Source of the DNA: Carcharhinus longimanus
Taxonomy: Eukaryota
Assembly: GCA_030264375.1 (NCBI GenBank)
Contig: JASCQW010000099.1
Span: 16,231,364 to 16,295,363, forward strand
DNA: 64,000 nt
Direction: 5' to 3'
The notes under the pieces were generated by a model, which was given only the letters and a program-made list of their open reading frames with translations, did not search any database and had not been told where the DNA came from. Shown piece by piece: positions 25,918 to 62,147 of the stretch (within the stretch, counting starts at the first letter, position 1; each line of letters opens with the position of its first letter). The position numbers and the translations under genes are program-made.

Positions 25918-28900
25918 CTGATTTTGAAACATGAGAAGTAAAATCCTTCATTCAAATAGACCAGAACACAAGTCAGCGTACCTGCAGCTTAAATTATCTG
26001 GACATTATTAATGACTCAGAATTGGACATTTTATATTTCAAATAAATTTGTTCCCACTTCATTGATTTGTTGACACAAAGTTAATAGTCAGATCAATTAA
26101 TCCACACATACTGGGAAAACCTTATGGTAGGAAGCACGGATCATTGGGACATCGAGTCAGTCTCCAAAGGTCTGCTAAAATTGTACTAGTAGAAATTTTA
26201 CTTCTTATTCGCCCCAATATTTCGGCCTTTTGTTTTCTTTTGCCTTGTTTCATTGAACTTTGAAGACAATACACGTTTAATGAATTTGTATAATTTGATG
26301 ACTTTGTACACGAGGGGTGGTATGATGCTAGTTTGATACATTTCTCCCCTGGCAACGTAAGTTTAAGGATTACATCAATTCCTCTTGATGTCTGGAATAC
26401 TGTGGGAAATTAGGGGGTTAATGGTTACAGCTTGGGAATATTGCCGTTTCTGCTTCTAAGAGTTGATTTGAGGGGCAGGGGTTAGGGATTGTGTCGAAAC
26501 AGCTCCTAAGAGTGGGCCTCAGGCTATATGGTATTTTTTCCAATTGCTTGCAGATATTTTCCATCACTTGTGCCAATTATTATTTGCCCAACAGGCGCTC
26601 CATCCATGCTTTCATGGTGGGTGCTTGCTGTCATAGTCAACAAAGTCAGTAACTTTCACTGATGCAGCAAATGACCAGGCTTTTTCTCAACAGAGATCAG
26701 TTACTTTGTGGGGCAGGAAAATGTCTATAGGGAGAAACCTTATGTACCCCCAGCCCAGGATGCTCTCACTGCTCTTGCAACTGATGCGGCAATCGGTGGC
26801 TGTGGTATATCACATCACTACCGCTCTCCCTACTTCACACTCCTCCTACACCACCAGCTCCTCCAGCTGGTGGACTAGCATGACCTTCAATTTTATGGCT
26901 ACTAGCCTCATCAACTCAGTTCGAAAAAAGTACAATTTTACAGTTAACCGTGGAATAAATAATGGTGCAGACTGGTCTTAAGTCGAGTCATTATGGGTCT
27001 CCATAGTTAAATATGGATTAGGAAGATCTGACTGTTACATGTAGCCTTTTTGCATCTACAAAAAGATGCAGATGTGCTGTACCCAAGCATATTTCTAGTT
27101 ACCCATTGTAGAAGGGAAATCACCATACCATACTTCATTTCATAGAATTTTCAGTGCACATTAGTGTAATGCAATCTAAAAATAGGAATTAGATGAGTCA
27201 ACTTGATGATGATTACTGGAGATTTTGAAGAAAGAATCCATTGGTGATAAAAAATTAATACCCTAAATGAACATGCAAGTTGATCAAAGATTAATTTAGA
27301 ACCTCAATCCCATTATCAAGTTTTTCAGAAGCAGAGTCTTACGAAAGAAACGTGCAAATAGAGAAGTCATGCTCCAAATATTGTTTTTAAGTTGCTTCGT
27401 TTCTTCAGGCTGATGGTTAAGGTGTTGGTCTCTGCCTTTTGACCCAATTCCAAGCTCTATCATTGGCAGGGAGCAAAGAATGGAGGTCAGTACTGTAAAT
27501 GATGAGCCACTGCCCAAACAAGTAAAATAAAATCTCATTTGGGTTATAAATATTGCAGATACTTCTTTCGTGAAGCCCTATGTGCTGGAGAAAAAAAATA
27601 ACCAGCATATGGTTATACACCCACTGCATTATTACCCTGCCGTATACCCACAATCACACTGCATTGTTACCTGTAGTTATATATCTGTTAGATTGTAAAT
27701 AATAGTACCATTTTTGCATAGTATATAGTATTCTCAACAACAAACATGGCAAATCCAGGAAGTCAGCCTGATGATCTAATTCTTGCAACAAGTGATCAAC
27801 CTTGTCCCATAGGTGATTTCACTTCAGACTGCAAACTGGCGCAAAGCTAATTTAAGTTTTAATAGTTCACTTTAAATTTAATAGAACTTTAAATTTGAAT
27901 GACTTTAAACGTTACCAGCGCTCCCATTCTCTGAAGATGAACATTCTCATCAGCTTATTGAGCACAGTACAGATAAGAATCAAGAGACCACTAGATGAAA
28001 AATACATTAAGCATTTATATTGTTCAACAGGACTTGAATGACATTTTCCACTTTACTTCCTTTTATTACAGTCTTTTTTAACTTGTGGATCCCCCCATTA
28101 TGTGTGATTTTGTAAGCTGGGTCTTTTCATCAGCAGAATCCCTGTAACCCAATTCTTTGGATTGTAGTTTAAAAATGAACAATTAACCATCTCTTAAGAG
28201 ATCAGAGTTTCAAAAACACTCAAGGTTTCCTTGCATTGTTATTGTTGCCAGAGCATTCACAAGGCCAAGATGTTACAGGCTGATGTAAATATTTAACATT
28301 AGCCCCTTATTAATCAGGAAGATGACAAAAGTCAGATGGTGCTCAGAACATTGGATTTCATTTGGAAGGCAAATAGCAGCCTTTTCTCAGGTACTGCAAT
28401 GCTGGTCTCTTTTGCTATGCTATGCCACGGCTGCTCAATATCTAACAATACAGTAAGGTAACCCAGGGATCTAACTTAAAAAACCTTGTTGTGATCAGAA
28501 CCAGATTTTTACATGTCTCATACATACCCAGAGGTGATGTCCAATCTTTTTGGAATCACACTGATAACACTTAATTCAATGAGAAAGACATTTTGCAAAT
28601 TATATTAAATAATGGCAAAGGTACCTTTTCCTGCATTGGTGGGCCCGACATAAAATAATTTCTAACTGTTCTCTTATAATTTTAACCTTTTAAGTCTGAT
28701 GAAAGCCTACCGTAGAACTTGTTGAAAAATCTGACCAGCAGTTTGTTTATAAAGTCACTAGACCACTGACATCCTTGTACCTTATTAACATGCCACAGAT
28801 GGCTGATGTTCCAATTGCCCATTTTATAAAGAATGGCACTTAACTAGAAAAAACAATCCAGCAGGTGGAATAATGTTATTATTCTCTGAAACAAAGGCAG

Positions 28901-53369: not shown

Positions 53370-54172
53370 CCCCTTCTAAAGGGACCCTATGCGATACCCT
53401 GCTCCAATCCTCCATCATCCCCAACAACAAACTAACCTACAGTGTTTTTCTTTCAAGCGCAGGAGGTACAACATTTGCCCCTCTGGTCTCTTCCCCTCCT
53501 GCAAGGTCCCAAAATACTCCTTCCATGTGCAACACATATCAACTTGTGCTTCATCCAATTTATTCTATTGTTTTCAAAGCTGACCACATGGTCTCTTCTA
53601 CACTGGGAAGACCAAATGCACACAAGGTTACATTTATAGAACACCTCAGTACAGTTGGCAAACACGATCCCAAACTTCTGATCATTTTAATTCCCCAGCT
53701 TCCTGCCACTCTGATCTGGCTGTCCTTGGAGCCCTGCAGTGTTCTGACGAAGCTCAATGCAAGTTGGAGAATTTTTTCATGTCTGGGCACTTTACAGCTT
53801 ACTAGACTCACTGTGTTCAACAATTTTAGTTCATAACCTCTGACCTCTTTCAGTTTTTTCCCACTACTTTCCCCTCTTCCTTCTCTTGACATTCATTCCT
53901 CCAGGCATATCTTTGTTTCCTTACTTGCCTCATTACCACTCCCATTAGCCACGCATCATGAATCCCACTGCCATTTGTCCTCCATCCCATCACATATCTA
54001 CCTTTAACTTTTTTCACCCACCCTTCCTTCATTCACCTGCTCAAAATCGATCACATTTCTAAATTTTCCCAGTTCTGATGAAATTTCACAAACCTCAAAC
54101 TTAACCTTTGTTTCCCTCTCCACAGGCGATGTCAGACTTGCTGAATAGTTCCAGCATTTTCTATTTTTATTA
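53370..54172 (+). mobile_element. Decayed Penelope-like element 3' end (GIY-YIG endonuclease remnant plus pLTR)
   Basis: RRRYNICP...PKYSFHVQHISTCASSNLFYCF...GLFYTGKT matches the PLE GIY-YIG pattern. A pyrimidine-rich UTR and a degenerate CTGATGA...CAAAC motif follow near 54074. Confidence 0.75.
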
Positions 54173-55249
54173 CAGTTGGGTACCATTGACAGACAGAAGA
54201 CAAGAATGGGTCAGACAACCATGGATGCAATAGCTGCACCAATATTTCTGACCAGAATGGGGATCAGTACTTAATTCCTACATTAGTGCTGTAAGTGACT
54301 GGAATTGATTTTAAGCATGTCCATGCTCCATTCACTTCATTTTGCGGGAGATACACCTTGCTTTTATTAGAAGAAGTTGCTGCAGTTTTGACTACAAATT
54401 CTGTTTGCTGAAGTTTAGGAGAGGCTCTCTTTGAATTGAGTCTGTAAATAGACTGTTTGCTTTGCTGCGACATACACAACTTTGCTGTCGTTCCAGTGCC
54501 CACCCTTAACTCATTGGCTGACATTGTACTACCAATAGAACATTTCACTCACCACCTACTTTTTTCTAACTGCTAAAAGAGATAGTCTTTTGCTAAATAA
54601 ATCTGACAAAATTGATCCAGAATAAATAACTGGAATCTGAAGCATTATTTGAATTGTTTTGTTGTACAGAATTCTGTAGGAAAATAGTATGCAAACACTA
54701 ACTTTTAAGAATTACAGAAAGCAGATGACAGATAAATCTTAATTAGGTTTTATTGTAATTCAGAATGAGTATTAACTGGGCGCAAAACGTTGGACAAAAA
54801 CTGTCCTCCTCCTGTCACTGTTGTGCTAATTGCTTTGTCAGGATATCTTAGAGATTCAAACTTTCTCTGGTGGCTTACAGAGGGGATCGCAACAGAACCA
54901 CTGTCTCAGGATTGATCCAGAATGTCTGTTGTACCATGGTCATTCAGATTGGATTATTCTTCTATTTGAGGGCAAACTACCATGAATTTATTTTAGGATG
55001 AAACGTAAAACTGGGATTCCACTGTTTACTTTCATATTACTCCTCAGCTACACACCATTAAAATGTTGGGTGACGAGATATCATTTAAAATGATTTAGGT
55101 GTGCAGCACTAGATTCTGTCCATCAACAAACCACTTTCACGACTATCCACTGCTGCTCCTTGCATCCTTTTGTGCAAATACAAACACCACATTTTCAATT
55201 AATCTATTCCCTGAAAACAAAAATCCCATAAACTCATTGACACACTTAC

Positions 55250-55312
55250 CTGATGTGGGAGATTTGCAGCGGTCATCTAGAGTTGTAGAACCCTCATTGA
55301 TATCACAGAGAC
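55250..55312 (-). CDS. STXBP5: STXBP5 exon, 63 nt: GLCDINEGSTTLDDRCKSPTS
   Basis: Acceptor CTTTCTTTGTCAG, donor GTAAGT, phase 1-1; matches tomosyn-1 GLCDISEG...EDRCKSPTS. Confidence 0.93.
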
Positions 55313-56663
55313 CTGACAAAGAAAGTCAACATGTTACCACAAAGAACACAATGATAAGGGGGTTAAGTTTGCATTTGTTGAACTCCATTAATGCAGAAGA
55401 ACATCTCAAGTCACTTCAGAGCCAAAACAGGCAAAAATGGACAGAAATAATTGCTCAAGAAAATAAAGTTACTCTGGAAAGCATTTGGGTCACAAAGGAT
55501 CACAATTTCATCACAGTGCTATGGGAATAAATGGGATGCCCGAGCAGCATAATGTCAATGTTTGTGGAACATCTCATCTTGAGATGGAGAACAGGTCAGA
55601 GAAACCAGAGGGGATTCATAAGCCTATTACAATCAATCAGAAAAGACTTCCCTTTTTGTTTTGCTCCACTGCAGCAAAATTTTGGAAGCCCTCAAATGAA
55701 ATATTTTAGCTTTTTTTGATTCTTAAACCTGCCTAATGGACTGGGAGAACATTGCTGCATGACTGTACTTGAGGAGGAAACATTGGTGAGATTCTTACTG
55801 CACATAGAAAGTATATCAAAATCCAGTTTCTTCTATTCAAGTCCATTCTTCCTGAACATTAATACAGCCAGAGTCCATCCCTCTGCTACATTAATTCTCA
55901 CGTCAATCTATTCTTATGATAAATTCTCACATTGGAATGCATTCATCTAGTATGTTGTGTCTTCAATCAAAGCCAAGCTTCTTTGCTACACTAATTATGC
56001 CATCAAAGCACATCATTCTGCGTAGTAATTCATCTAAAAACCCACCTCTCTCATGCAGTACTCATCCTACTGAAGCCCCTCCCACCAGGACATTTAATTC
56101 CCAAAATCCTTATCTCATGATGGCAGTCCAAGATAATTTTCAATCATTCTAAAGTAGAATCTGTATTCTATTTGCCCGACGATACATTTCACCCCGGAGC
56201 CAGATCATAAATGAAAACGTACATTTATCCAGGCATCGCACAAAGCCACATGGCAGACAAGTGCAGGGATCTTGTAACTGAACAGCTAGTATCTCCCTGC
56301 CCTTCGATGAACTTTGGTTGAACTCCCAAAAATCTCCTTGTAAATTTCAATTCAGTGAACTACATCATACTGAATATTCAGATTTAGACTCCTATTTCTG
56401 TTTCTAGTGGGACCTGCTAATCTACGGTACCGGTTACACGCCAGGGCAATACAGTGAAAGTCTATCCTCATGTGTCAACGAACATTGTAAAGCAATGTTG
56501 GAATTTACAGAACAAAAATGTATTTTCAGAACACTTCCAAAATATAGCATGATGCATGTCCACCCTATCTGACAAAACAGTGCATGTTCCTCAACTTGTA
56601 TCTCATGTTTTTTGCTGCATGAATTCCTGAATCTCAACAGGCAGAACCTACCAACGATAAGTT

Positions 56664-56791
56664 ATGATGTGGCAATGCCAGTGTTGGACTGGGATGGGCA
56701 CAGTAAGAAGTCTCACATCAGGTTAAAGTGCAAGAGGTTTAGAAAAAGAAACCTCTTGCACTTTAACCTGGTGTTCAGAGACTTCTTACTG
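56664..56791. mobile_element. Miniature foldback derivative of the Penelope pLTR family seen at 43512
   Basis: Starts ATGATGTGGCAATGCCAGTGTTGGACTGGG like 43512; about 40-bp inverted arms; flanked by an AACGATAA direct repeat. Confidence 0.75.
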
Positions 56792-57507
56792 AACGATAAA
56801 CTTACTTCTAGGCTTCTTGAACAATTCACAAAGCTTGTGTTCGAAGTGACCATGATTTAAAAAAAGACATACTAAATCCAGCTACTTAGAACAGACGACC
56901 ATGATCAGCGAAGAAAACAGAATGTTTAGTCAGGGTCCAAAGACTGAATCAGGAGAAAACAGCAAAGAAGCCTAGTTTCTTCAATCTTGAAAGGAGTCCA
57001 GGATGGATGCCTCAGAGGCAAACCAAACTAAAATAGATGTTATCATTAAAATACTATCTCCTCCAGTGGTCTAATGACATGCAACCCTCTGCTGCCAGCA
57101 AACACTTGGGCTGGACTGATCATTAAATTTTTGCTGATCTGTCTGTTTTATGAGGCCAACATAGGAGTTGTCATCACTTGGTTGACAATATAAGAGACAG
57201 CGAATGTTGATTCTCCTGCCAAGTGGAATATTCTCCAATGAAGCTTCAGCTTCCTATCTTAAATAAAACTGCTCAACCTATTTAACACAAGCACCCTCTT
57301 ATAGAGCAGCTATTGAAACAAAGTCACTCAACAGCAGTTCCAAGCATTATGCAACCAAAGCGTGCAGCTGTAGTAGACTATTTTTAATTGTTTATGTGCA
57401 AAGATAAAAGGGACCCATTGAGAATGATTTCAATAGCTGATGCGACGTATAGTAACTTCAAAATCCAAACATAAGACAGAAGTTTGTATCAGCGTGAGAT
57501 GACTTAC

Positions 57508-57591
57508 TTAGATATGAAGAACGTAGTCTTTTCACAGACTCAGAATATAAACTAGAAAGACCACACATGCAAGAAGTCACCGTCAGCATGC
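57508..57591 (-). CDS. STXBP5: Probable alternative STXBP5 cassette exon, 84 nt: GMLTVTSCMCGLSSLYSESVKRLRSSYL, resembling an STXBP5L exon
   Basis: Acceptor TGCTTTTTTTTCTACTGCGTCCTAAG, donor GTAAGT, phase 1-1, no stop codon. Similar to the recalled STXBP5L segment FCMRGLSNFYPDLTKRIRTSYQS at the equivalent position. Confidence 0.8.
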
Positions 57592-58799
57592 CTTAGGACG
57601 CAGTAGAAAAAAAAGCACAACACCAAAATAATAATTTGGCTGTAATAACCTGCAGAACAAAACTTAGAACACAGCAACAGATAATGCAATCTGCATAAAG
57701 ACAGAAAATTAAAATCAGAAATCACTGGGGCTATTTCCACATGACTTTTTCATGACCCCAAAATAATATTCACGATATGTAGGAAAATCACATGCTAAAG
57801 TAGAGTTCAAGCCATGAAGAATGCAGGATATTAAAAGAAAAAACCTTTTGGTTCCATAAGCTGTATTAACCTTCTCATCAGTCAGCTGACATGTATTTAA
57901 TGTGTGTGTTAAAAGTTACTGGAAAATTTCAAGTTACTGAATTATAAAAGATGGAGATAAAATGGAATTAACAACTTGTGAAGAGGAGCTCAGTGCAGTA
58001 GGTAGGTCGGTCATCTTGCAAAATGGCTGTTTTGAAAATGCTCTGAGTGAACAGTGAGTGGGATTGCTCCCAAGGATGGTGGACATGGACTGAATGGCCT
58101 CCACTTCTGTTCTGCAGATTTCTAGGGTCTATGTTGAGAAGCAAGGCTGTTCCAAAGCTAGAAGTAGAAAATGACAATCCTGACAATTATGTTAAGTAGA
58201 AGCTGAGTCTGGGTAACATGACACGGAAGCAGCAGATACAGAGAATATGTAAAATTATGTCCTTCCTCACAGCTGGTCAAAAGTGTCCTTCTCATAGTTT
58301 TGTGTTCTCTTGCTGGAATACCCCGATCTATTTTCAGGTATGCTTTAAGGTTAGCTAATTTTTTACACTTCAACTAGATAATCTCCTTTTGAAGGCTAAA
58401 AGCACTCCAGGATCCCCTGTCCTTCCTCTGACACTGAGGATCACCCTCCTGTCTCTTCTCTGCAATGCTTCCCTGGCTCAAATATTTCTCTCTCTTGTTG
58501 ACCCAGAGTGAACTCAGTACTTGAGATCTGTCCATAATCAGGAACTGTTCAATCTTAGAACCATATAGTCTCCTTGCATTCACTGAAGGAGTGATACAAT
58601 TCAGCACTTCACTCATTGTGGAGGAGCAATGAATGCAGTGATGGTAAATGTTAATCTATGAGCAGTTACACATTTTTTTCTGTTTCAGCTTTAGTTGTTT
58701 CTTTTGTATCATATAAGCACAGGGGGTCACTCCTGTGTTGCCTCTATAAAGAGCTATCCAAGTAGTCTCATCTCTGGTGCCTTTTCAAGTTAATACTAC

Positions 58800-58945
58800 T
58801 CAGCATACATCTTTGGATTGTGGGAGGAAACCGGAAACCCATGCTGACACAAGGAAAATGTGCAAACTCCAAACAGACAGTGACCCAAGCTGGGAATCAA
58901 ACCCAGGTCCCTTGCGCCAGGAGGCTAACCACTGTGCCACCCTGC
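58800..58945 (-). mobile_element. V-SINE head and core fragment
   Basis: GGTGGCACAGTGGTTAG...GGGTTTGATTCCCAGCTTGGGTCACTGTCTG on the minus strand. Confidence 0.8.
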
Positions 58946-59670
58946 TGTCCCAAAACTTGACTGACTGTCCTTAACATCTGCAAATTTGACTGTTTTTGCT
59001 TGTCAGAATAAGACAGCAAAAAGGTCACTTGACCCACAGATATTGCGTCATTCTCCACTTTTCCTTATTCCAGGCCTCACAAGCCTACTCTACTATTCAA
59101 TAATGACTGACCTGAATGTGGTCTTAATACCCCACCACCACCTTCTCATTATCCTCGGACTCCCTTATAGATCCAAATCTTTAGGATCAAAATCTTAGAA
59201 GCTCCAGCACCAATTCCTGAGCTATCTCATTTAGCTCCTATTGCTCGACTAACAAGTTCACACAGTCTGCTTTCCTTCTGTCAATTTCTTACCCAGATCA
59301 ATTTGTTCTAATTTCAGTGAGACACTTTAGTGAGAAGCCTTGTAACATTTGCATTCTGCTTGCAGAACACTTTTTATTTAATTCTATCCCAAGTAAATAA
59401 TAAAAAGCAATTCATTCAATGAACTCAGGCCGATGATGATGCTCCCTTCAAAAGGGAACCTTTCCATCACATCAGTGGCGGTTGTTGCTCAGCTCTTTAT
59501 GCTGCCTTACAGAACCTGGACACGAGCAAATAGCTCACTGCACTGGGCTTCTGCCTAATTAACGCTTCCACACTACAGATTCCTTCTTACATAGTGCCCA
59601 AGTTGGTTGAGCACATCAAATCTATTTTAACTCCAGAAGGTGTTACAAAAGTAGAAGCATCAGTGCTTAC

Positions 59671-59822
59671 CTCCCGAGGCTTGTCGTGTTTTACGTGGGG
59701 ACTTTGGTTGTCTCTGGTAAGGGTCGTTCGACCCATACAGTTCAATTGTGCCCAGGTTTAGCAGCACAGTTTTCTGAATGTAATCTACCATTGCAATGCC
59801 ATTGCAGTTTCCAAACACCAAA
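59671..59822 (-). CDS. STXBP5: STXBP5 exon, 152 nt: LVFGNCNGIAMVDYIQKTVLLNLGTIELYGSNDPYQRQPKSPRKTRQASG
   Basis: Not in the ORF track; translated by hand. Acceptor TTTTTCTCTTTAG, donor GTAAGC, phase 2-1. Confidence 0.95.
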
Positions 59823-62147
59823 CTAAAGAGAAAAATGCATTATATTAAAGAACATCTTCAGTCCAACAATAAATCCCAAACACTCAAACCTACATCTTTT
59901 CTTGAAAATCCAGTGCTTTAAGCGAATGCATGCCTATAAACCAGAAGTTGATTAGAAAGGACAATGGAATTAATTCTAATAACTCACATCAACAGCATAT
60001 CCCTTGTTCTAACATTACCATTAAGCTAGTGGACCAAATCTACTTCAATAGGAGTGCAGAAGAGCATTCCAGGAGCACCATTAGGCACTCTTAAAAATGA
60101 GGTGTCAAACTGGAGAAGTTATGATAGAAGTGATCCCACAACCAGTGGATCACATTAAAACTCTGCACTCCTGCCATGTCCCGTTCTGAATGATGGGGGA
60201 CAATCAAATAACAGATGGAAGGCAATCAAACAACAAATGGAAGGAGCTGACCAATGAATATCCCCATCCTCAACCTAGAATAACGGAAGCCAGTAGGAAT
60301 ATGGGCAAATCCTATCCATCTCGCCAATTGGTGTTTTTTCTGACATACTTTTAGGTGGTTTGGCTGTCAATCCAAAAAAATCAGTAGTGTTATTTGGGGA
60401 GATTTTTGTGTGTGTCTTTATTCAGATACACTGGATTTCTGGAGTACAGCAAGTGGGTCAGAATGCTCACCTCAAAGGCTCGCTAAGGCATAGATCCAGG
60501 ATAAATCCCCCAATTAAATCTGTGTAATAACAGGCTGCATGTATATAACAGTTCATGCAACAAAATACGCCAAGAGGTTTTCAAAACATCAACTTATTTA
60601 ATGACTTTCATAAAAATGATTAATGAAAACTTGATTCCAAGCCACAAAATACAATTTCAGGAGTTGGCCTATTGCATGGTTAAAAAAGATAGATTTTTGA
60701 GGAGTGTCTTAAGAGTGCACAGTAAAGACACATATGACTAGAAAGTTAACGTAGCAATTAGGTCACAGATCATTGAATGATGGAACTGACTCAATATGAT
60801 AAACAGCATACCTGTTCTTTTATGTTCTTAGAGATTTAGGGAGAGCACTGAAATCCTTAAGTATAAATTCTGTGGCTCAAACAGCAGGTTAGGTGCTGGG
60901 GATTCAGTGGCGAGTAACTCATCTGTACTCCCCAAAACCTGCCACCATCTACAAGGCACGAGTCTGGAATGTGATAGAATGCTCTCCACTTCCTAGATGA
61001 GTGTGGCTTCAACAACACAAGTTAAATACCAACCAGGACAAAACAGCCCAGCAGCCTCCATCTACCAGCTTAAACATTAATTCAGTGCACCATTGGCATA
61101 CAGTGGCAGTAGTGTGCACATCTACAAGATGCACAACTTGCAACAGCTCCTAAGGCAGCACCTTCTGCCAATCTCAACGGCAGGCAAGGACAAGGGAAAG
61201 AGATGCATGAGATCATCACCTGAAAATCTTACCCCTCCAGCCTACCCCAAGCCATTTACATGCATCTGCACTGGATGGACTATGTCAGGTGATTCACCTC
61301 TACCATCTCAAGGGAAATTAGGGATGGGCAACAAATGTTGGCCTTGCCAGTAATGCTCGTATCCCAGAAATGAATAAAGAATACATGCAATGTCATGGAG
61401 GTAAAAGTAGGCGTTGCTGATGGCACGGGTATGGAGTTAGACACTAAACTCAGCGTCAATTAGGACAAAGTTACCAATCATTTGGTTCAGCCTCAAACAC
61501 AGAACGCAGAGGGATGGAGTCAGTGGCTAGTAAACCAAGATTACAGCAGGGACCAAAGGCAATGGCTTCAGTCCTCTCAGTATTTAAGTGGAGGAAATTT
61601 CTGCCCATTGCTTGTCTGACATCCAGTTATACAGTGACAAATTAGCAACAGCAGAGGGGTTGAGAGAACTGGTGGTGAGGTCAAACCGGATATAGTCATT
61701 GTACATGTGGAATCTGGCATTGTTTTTGTATGCTGAAGCAGCGTGAAGGTGAGAAATAGAGGGGGGCACGGATAGATTCTTGGGGTCTCTAGACCCCAAC
61801 GATGCAGGAGAGAAATTAAGAGAAAGTTTTGAAGGTATAGACAGAGGGGTGAAAAAGAGTGTACACAATACCAGAATAAGGTGAGTGAAAGCTGTCACTG
61901 AGGATGAAGACAACAGGTTTCATGACAGGGTACGGTGAACACAGTCCCTGGTAGAAATTTGCCATTAGGAAACCAAGAAGAAAGTAGATGTGGAAAACGA
62001 AGTTAATTTGAGGTCTCAAGGCAGGAAATCTACTCAGGAGTGCTGTAATACATCACATTTTAACCACTAGAATTTATGATGAGAATGCTAGAACATATTT
62101 TGTGCAAGGTGATCAAGAGATTTAATGACAGCAAGGCTGATACTCAC

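Follow-up and report, generated by a model that had tools for sequence, protein, structure and literature searches.

A conserved candidate cassette exon of STXBP5 (tomosyn-1) in a predicted disordered loop

An 84-nt segment in an intron of the tomosyn-1 gene (STXBP5) of the shark Carcharhinus longimanus (57508..57591, minus strand, within an analyzed stretch of 64,000 nucleotides referred to here as the window) is very probably a frame-keeping cassette exon that is conserved across jawed vertebrates, likely predates the duplication that gave rise to tomosyn-2 (STXBP5L) and its own counterpart exon, and is probably spliced into a minor share of transcripts. It would add 28 residues to a hypervariable loop that is predicted to be disordered, where they may form a short binding motif controlled by phosphorylation.

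The segment lies between an upstream exon at 59671..59822, whose C-terminal end reads KTRQASG, and a downstream exon at 55250..55312 that encodes LCDINE...KSPTS (both on the minus strand). It is preceded by a T-rich pyrimidine tract and AAG acceptor (57592..57615, minus) and followed by a GTAAGT donor (57502..57507, minus), and the letters at its two boundaries, with a slash at the splice point, read AAG/G at 57591 and A/GTAAGT at 57508. Because the upstream exon stops at 59671 and the downstream one begins at 55312, both in phase 1, inclusion of this phase 1-1 exon preserves the frame, and the two split codons become Gly and Ser. Its 27 whole codons translate without a stop as MLTVTSCMCGLSSLYSESVKRLRSSYL. 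An earlier note on this DNA had described the coordinates, the 84-nt length, the pyrimidine tract, the AAG acceptor, and the GTAAGT donor just as we read them, and its account of the phase, the open frame, the peptide, and the change of the next codon to Ser agrees with the translation and the flanking exon phases. We scanned the whole 4,358-nt intron for stop-free phase 1 segments of 30-200 nt bounded by AG..GTRAG, with at least 11 of 17 pyrimidines, and this segment was the single candidate; as this filter was chosen after the exon had been seen, the real case against chance is conservation. Two short high-copy repeats, apparently SINE-like and matched by thousands of contigs, flank the exon within the introns (about 56660-56790 and 58830-58950).

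The host gene had been identified as tomosyn-1, and this assignment was borne out, as the flanking exons are closest to named STXBP5 proteins rather than to STXBP5L. A protein search with the upstream-exon peptide (892 proteins with E values of 0.001 or less, of which 120 were listed) found shark and ray syntaxin-binding protein 5 records that were 100% identical to it, and two shark STXBP5 proteins aligned exon by exon down the window, giving 13 exon matches in order. A search of the shark's own genome yielded two matches, one being the window itself, on contig C99, and the other a paralogue at 66% identity on contig C105. Other optional exons of the gene are also present in the window, all on the minus strand. 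These include both b-type exons (49014-48955 and about 48853-48806) and a 17-residue m-type exon (35275-35225), the counterpart of the exon that holds the PKA/SUMO region in mammalian tomosyn-1m, which is identical at 15-17 of 17 residues across vertebrates. Past the m-exon lies another optional exon of ~38 residues (about 27344-27460), which several STXBP5 models of sharks and skates contain and which is much less conserved (85% against a Mustelus model over 41 aligned residues).

Evidence on splicing came from contigs of four sequencing runs, presumed to be RNA, aligned to 54000-61000; such contigs show the presence of a joint and cannot measure inclusion. The joint that skips the exon, removing the whole 4,358-nt intron, was found in all four runs (depths 33, 8, 92, and 8.4), so the runs hold spliced molecules. 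In one of the four, run X1, which is nearly identical to the window, a single contig (depth 5.1, with 28 letters on the short side) joined the exon donor at 57508 exactly to 55312, removing exactly 2,195 nt with CT..AC ends. The earlier note had proposed looking for two junctions: the downstream one, 57508 to 55312, is thus seen in one contig, while the upstream one, 59671 to 57591, was absent from the joints listed for the four runs over 54000-61000. A second contig alignment, covering 57100-58100, contained no splice joints. We rejected a duplicate genomic copy of the exon as the source of the X1 joint, as a search of the shark's own genome returned one match, the window itself, although at a low sensitivity that also missed the paralogue. 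The contig depths are compatible with the 84-nt exon as a minor form, and use of its acceptor in this shark is suggested by RefSeq and UniRef models from other species.

The X1 contig continues past the acceptor at 57591 into the intron as far as 57800, and it therefore represents a partly spliced molecule. This read-through would also be expected if the donor were paired with an upstream acceptor, at 57690 or 57649, to make a stop-containing exon that leads to decay, with the 84-nt form being rare in this shark; read by hand, these two CAG sites would introduce a stop in frame or shift the frame, and the 183-nt form is not stop-free. However, the contig extends beyond both sites at a depth as low as that of the rest of the intron, substitutions in two other organisms (X3 and X7) hit the pyrimidine tract of the 57690 site, and six cartilaginous-fish species are modelled with exactly the 84-nt exon. 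We consider this pairing extremely unlikely and favor the 84-nt cassette. Among the rows listed for three related organisms over 57100-58100, the exon contained no indels and one substitution. This change among close sharks, at 57524 in X8, is synonymous for Leu (codon read by hand). The deficit of substitutions is not significant in these comparisons, with one synonymous change in X8 against ~2 expected and none in X3 against ~3.

The exon had been presented in the earlier note as hidden, which it is not: it had also been suggested that the exon might already exist as a predicted minor isoform in some species, and public predicted isoforms do carry it in many, including mouse and rat. Among the 120 proteins listed for the search with the upstream exon alone, 10 carried the insert. 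Searches centered on the exon itself returned 49 and 33 proteins, and cluster listings added further named members, a sample that covers some of the isoforms of each species; the inclusion records are predicted models throughout. Within cartilaginous fishes, 6 of the 21 species examined have the insert in predicted STXBP5 isoforms (NCBI/UniRef), and it was absent from the records of the other 15, which likewise represent part of their isoforms. The peptide is identical to the shark exon in catshark, two Mobula, Hypanus, and Hemitrygon, with one change in Narcine. Beyond these, insert-bearing models were found in bichir, sturgeon, paddlefish, gar, and several teleosts (diverged); in Xenopus, Leptodactylus, a newt, four lizard genera, and many birds; and in whales, goat, dog, a bat, marmoset, gundi, gerbil, rat, and mouse. 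The insert was absent from all three coelacanth records and from three Mustelus records, and no human STXBP5 record with it appeared among the matches of the two exon-centered searches or the 15 listed of 204 bird and mammal cluster members.

RefSeq STXBP5 isoforms of catshark (XP_038661079.1), manta (XP_072121745.1), mouse (XP_036012002.1), rat (XP_063131071.1), and marmoset (XP_078226396.1) share both the exon and its boundaries with this shark, and we found no substantive difference from them apart from a tandem acceptor that bony vertebrates have on the next exon. There, bony-vertebrate records carry an additional Ala or Thr; in the shark, the acceptor of that exon, TTTGTCAG (55313-55320, minus), is not a tandem one, and the extra residue was absent from every cartilaginous-fish record examined. 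The 84-nt cassette is thus already annotated in many species, mouse and rat among them, and is an overlooked exon rather than a new kind of system; it is conserved across jawed vertebrates, contrary to the suggestion that its retention was special to this tomosyn-1. Nor does it define one extra-large isoform, as had been thought. Downstream of the insert, records have a long, a medium, or a short backbone, and since any backbone can accompany it, the insert is a separate cassette.

Conservation of the encoded peptide is high. Of the 28 shark residues, mouse shares 22, crow 23, whales, frog, and gar 24 each, and manta all 28. Over the same range, the next exon retains 14-18 of 21 residues, the first b-exon 9-17 of 20, and the upstream core exon 39-49 of 50, so that the cassette is better conserved than the first two and comes near the third. 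Among 32 distinct peptides, collected with a pattern that forces five columns, the core is nearly fixed and there are many conservative changes (K/R, S/T, Y/F, and L/I). The retention of 22-24 of 28 residues from shark to tetrapods points to purifying selection on the peptide.

A related exon was found in the paralogue. In 60 kb of searched sequence on contig C105, a counterpart in STXBP5L (L004:124-195) matches at 19 of 26 residues with an E value of 4e-7, the next best match being at 0.36, and it sits between homologues of both flanking exons, that is, in the same intron. The homology to a STXBP5L alternative exon claimed in the earlier note is therefore upheld, and shuffle tests agree: none of 5,000 shuffles reached the score of the shark STXBP5 exon against the squirrel exon of STXBP5L, and none did so against that of anchovy. 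The peptide that the note had given for human STXBP5L was compared with the squirrel record and is there letter for letter. The DNA of the two paralogous exons can be aligned, donor included, and third positions differ while the residues are kept. This genome's STXBP5L has no AG at the homologous acceptor position; within 200 nt, the sole open phase 1 acceptor is 12 nt inside that point and would give a 66-nt exon, in agreement with the short exons of the squirrel (24 residues) and anchovy (23 residues) records. At L004:122-199, the first 11 bases all match those that open the STXBP5 exon, though they are apparently intronic in STXBP5L, and the splice site there appears to have shifted, leaving a conserved remnant. 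The exon is missing from STXBP5L records of gecko and cichlid, so it appears to be optional in this gene too. The tomosyn-2 exon (DNFCMRG...SYQ in squirrel MBZ3886426.1) thus resembles that of tomosyn-1 in intron position, phase 1-1, core, and occurrence of records with and without it, but differs in having 22-24 residues, in missing the first residues, and in reading CMRG for CMCG, the second Cys being replaced by Arg. Human STXBP5L numberings V1019 and V1043, given in the available part of one paper (PMC8799713), are 24 residues apart, a gap that would be compatible with a STXBP5L cassette.

The simplest reading of these sequences, and the one that the earlier note proposed, is that the exon arose in stem vertebrates before STXBP5 and STXBP5L separated; we infer this from the paired exons of the two paralogues rather than from an outgroup. 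No match to the exon profile turned up in 150 representative invertebrate tomosyns, a set in which fragments or single isoforms were numerous. A lamprey segment matched the squirrel STXBP5L exon start at p 0.002 and the other two exons compared at 0.97 and 0.82, a result that may reflect how the lamprey model was constructed. In a 17-protein tree, four invertebrate tomosyns formed one clade outside STXBP5 and STXBP5L, and the lamprey model grouped with STXBP5L (99/96) on a long branch with odd composition, which together suggest that the duplication predates the lamprey split. Later gene conversion or copying of the exon between paralogues could account for the likeness as well, and would fit both the agreement of all 11 bases at the 5' end in the shark pair and the lack of a clear outgroup copy, with invertebrates blank and the lamprey matching just the squirrel exon start. 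The paralogues, however, lie on different large contigs, C99 and C105, and each has a signature of its own that persists from sharks to mammals: most STXBP5 sequences read CMCG, and the STXBP5L sequences of shark, anchovy, and squirrel read CMRG. We regard such an exchange as exceedingly improbable and retain the pre-duplication origin.

The exon contains a TGCATG hexamer on its Cys-Met codons (57566..57571, minus), which has a counterpart in the STXBP5L exon and which we take to be an Rbfox-type word of putative function. GCATG also occurs at the exon start (57587-57591), and both words coincide with Met codons. An extra TGCATG lies 9 nt beyond the STXBP5L donor and none beyond the STXBP5 donor (background, about 0.3 per kb), and GCATG is not enriched in the window, with 118 occurrences observed against 148 expected. 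By the position rule for Rbfox, these sites would repress the tomosyn-1 exon and favor the tomosyn-2 exon in neurons; Rbfox-type control of the paralogous exons would thus be a post hoc lead from the sequence of one genome. That the hexamer is shared by both paralogous exons could also mean that the segment owes its conservation mainly to a role as an RNA element made up of splicing-factor sites, with noise-level inclusion and an inert peptide. In keeping with this are the small number of records that include it (10 of 120 listed), the 11 identical 5' bases that seem to be intronic in STXBP5L, and the few changes in the upstream intron flank among close sharks. An RNA element would not, however, explain why the frame is kept in records from shark to mouse, why so many of the amino acid changes are conservative, or why the paralogues differ at third positions while residues stay the same. 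We judge this very unlikely, and prefer an exon conserved for its peptide.

An AlphaFold prediction from a 55-sequence alignment places the exon, as residues 691-718, in a loop between propeller strands (678-813) with pLDDT under 50. Tomosyn blocks flanking this loop align with those around residues 611-700 of Lgl chains, so that the peptide is predicted to lie in a disordered, hypervariable counterpart of the Lgl 10-11 loop. A conserved 28-mer in such a loop is most simply read as a short binding or modification motif. Its core, comprising Cys-Met, LYSES, and then a basic patch ending in R-S/T-S-aromatic, would be a candidate for a kinase-regulated docking element, and the basic end fits Arg-x-x-Ser and Arg-x-Ser-aromatic patterns, which we presume to be those of kinases. 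Some mammals and lizards deviate in the basic patch, and the last Arg of the proposed motif is replaced in 5 of the 32 distinct peptides. Such an element would tune the stability or inhibitory strength of tomosyn, leaving the propellers and SNARE motif unchanged, by analogy with the neighboring m-exon and its PKA and SUMO sites. We put this phospho-regulated role forward tentatively, as a real possibility that falls somewhat short of an even chance. Excerpts of published work place PKA and SUMO sites in the tomosyn variable region (PMC3188574, PMC3948876), more precisely PKA site 724 and SUMO site K730 in that of tomosyn-1m (PMC3948876), and describe tomosyn-2 as being phosphorylated and degraded upon stimulation (PMC12139977).

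The Lgl 10-11 loop is described, in the portions available, as binding membranes and being phosphorylated by aPKC (PMC11996676, PMC4621827), and the exon might restore such a polybasic, aPKC-controlled patch to tomosyn-1, possibly with cysteine lipidation, and so bring the protein to the membrane. Like the P-site of LLGL1/2, it occupies the equivalent loop of the second propeller, as judged by the flanking-block alignment, and has a basic patch ending in Ser plus an aromatic residue, with Arg at -2 and the aromatic at +1 as excerpted for Llgl2 S653 (PMC11996676); it also has a modest helical hydrophobic moment, up to 0.46. Unlike the P-site, it has far fewer basic residues, 3, where the polybasic domain of mouse Lgl has 13 (PMC4621827), and it cannot be traced through invertebrate tomosyns, whose lack of a match breaks any continuous line to Lgl. 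STXBP5L has Arg in place of the second Cys. Homology to Lgl was rejected as not significant: the exon profile scored Lgl-type loops (records that we presume to be such from their motif) below zero, and shuffle tests gave p 0.03-0.04 for three of five loops and about 0.25 for two, the loops having been picked by motif. The dense basic-hydrophobic stretch and three spaced serines of the P-site are likewise not seen in the exon peptide. Given the 3 basic residues and the lack of a significant Lgl-loop match, we think an Lgl-like switch unlikely, and the phospho-regulated docking element is the reading we prefer.

Published counts, in the parts of the papers available, give tomosyn-1 three forms and tomosyn-2 four, or a total of at least seven (PMC3188574, PMC5529015, PMC3948876). 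The classical b, m, and s forms of tomosyn-1 resemble the present case in using cassette exons in the same hypervariable region, as described in an excerpt of one paper (PMC3188574); the cassette reported here differs in lying one exon upstream of the b/m exons and in occurring in records with any backbone, against a published tomosyn-1 count of three in the text available. A literature search covering papers without their supplements found none on a tomosyn-1 cassette, and splicing atlases may well list the exon. Stxbp5l splicing papers, in the portions available, concern exon 23/24 under SLM2 and Sam68 (PMC3636136, PMC11077083, PMC5199341), which, judged by exon number, appears to be further downstream than the cassette, and the available part of a long-read preprint (10.1101/2025.11.25.690524) names STXBP5L only. 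At its most ambitious, the exon would be more than 500 million years old and would give both tomosyns a switchable, kinase-controlled patch for membrane or partner binding in the loop that Lgl uses to the same end, set differently in the two paralogues through Rbfox sites (in the exon of both, with an extra downstream site in tomosyn-2 only), and would define a fourth class of tomosyn-1 isoform, distinct from b, m, and s and overlooked in cDNA cloning from brain. We consider this full picture improbable.

Tomosyn-1 is a brake on vesicle fusion in neurons and secretory cells. A cassette that is nearly unchanged from shark to mouse, and better kept than the b-exons, means that the working list of its isoforms is incomplete, and it marks a gap between annotation and literature as well as a short motif worth testing. 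Its role is likely one of fine-tuning this brake on vesicle release.
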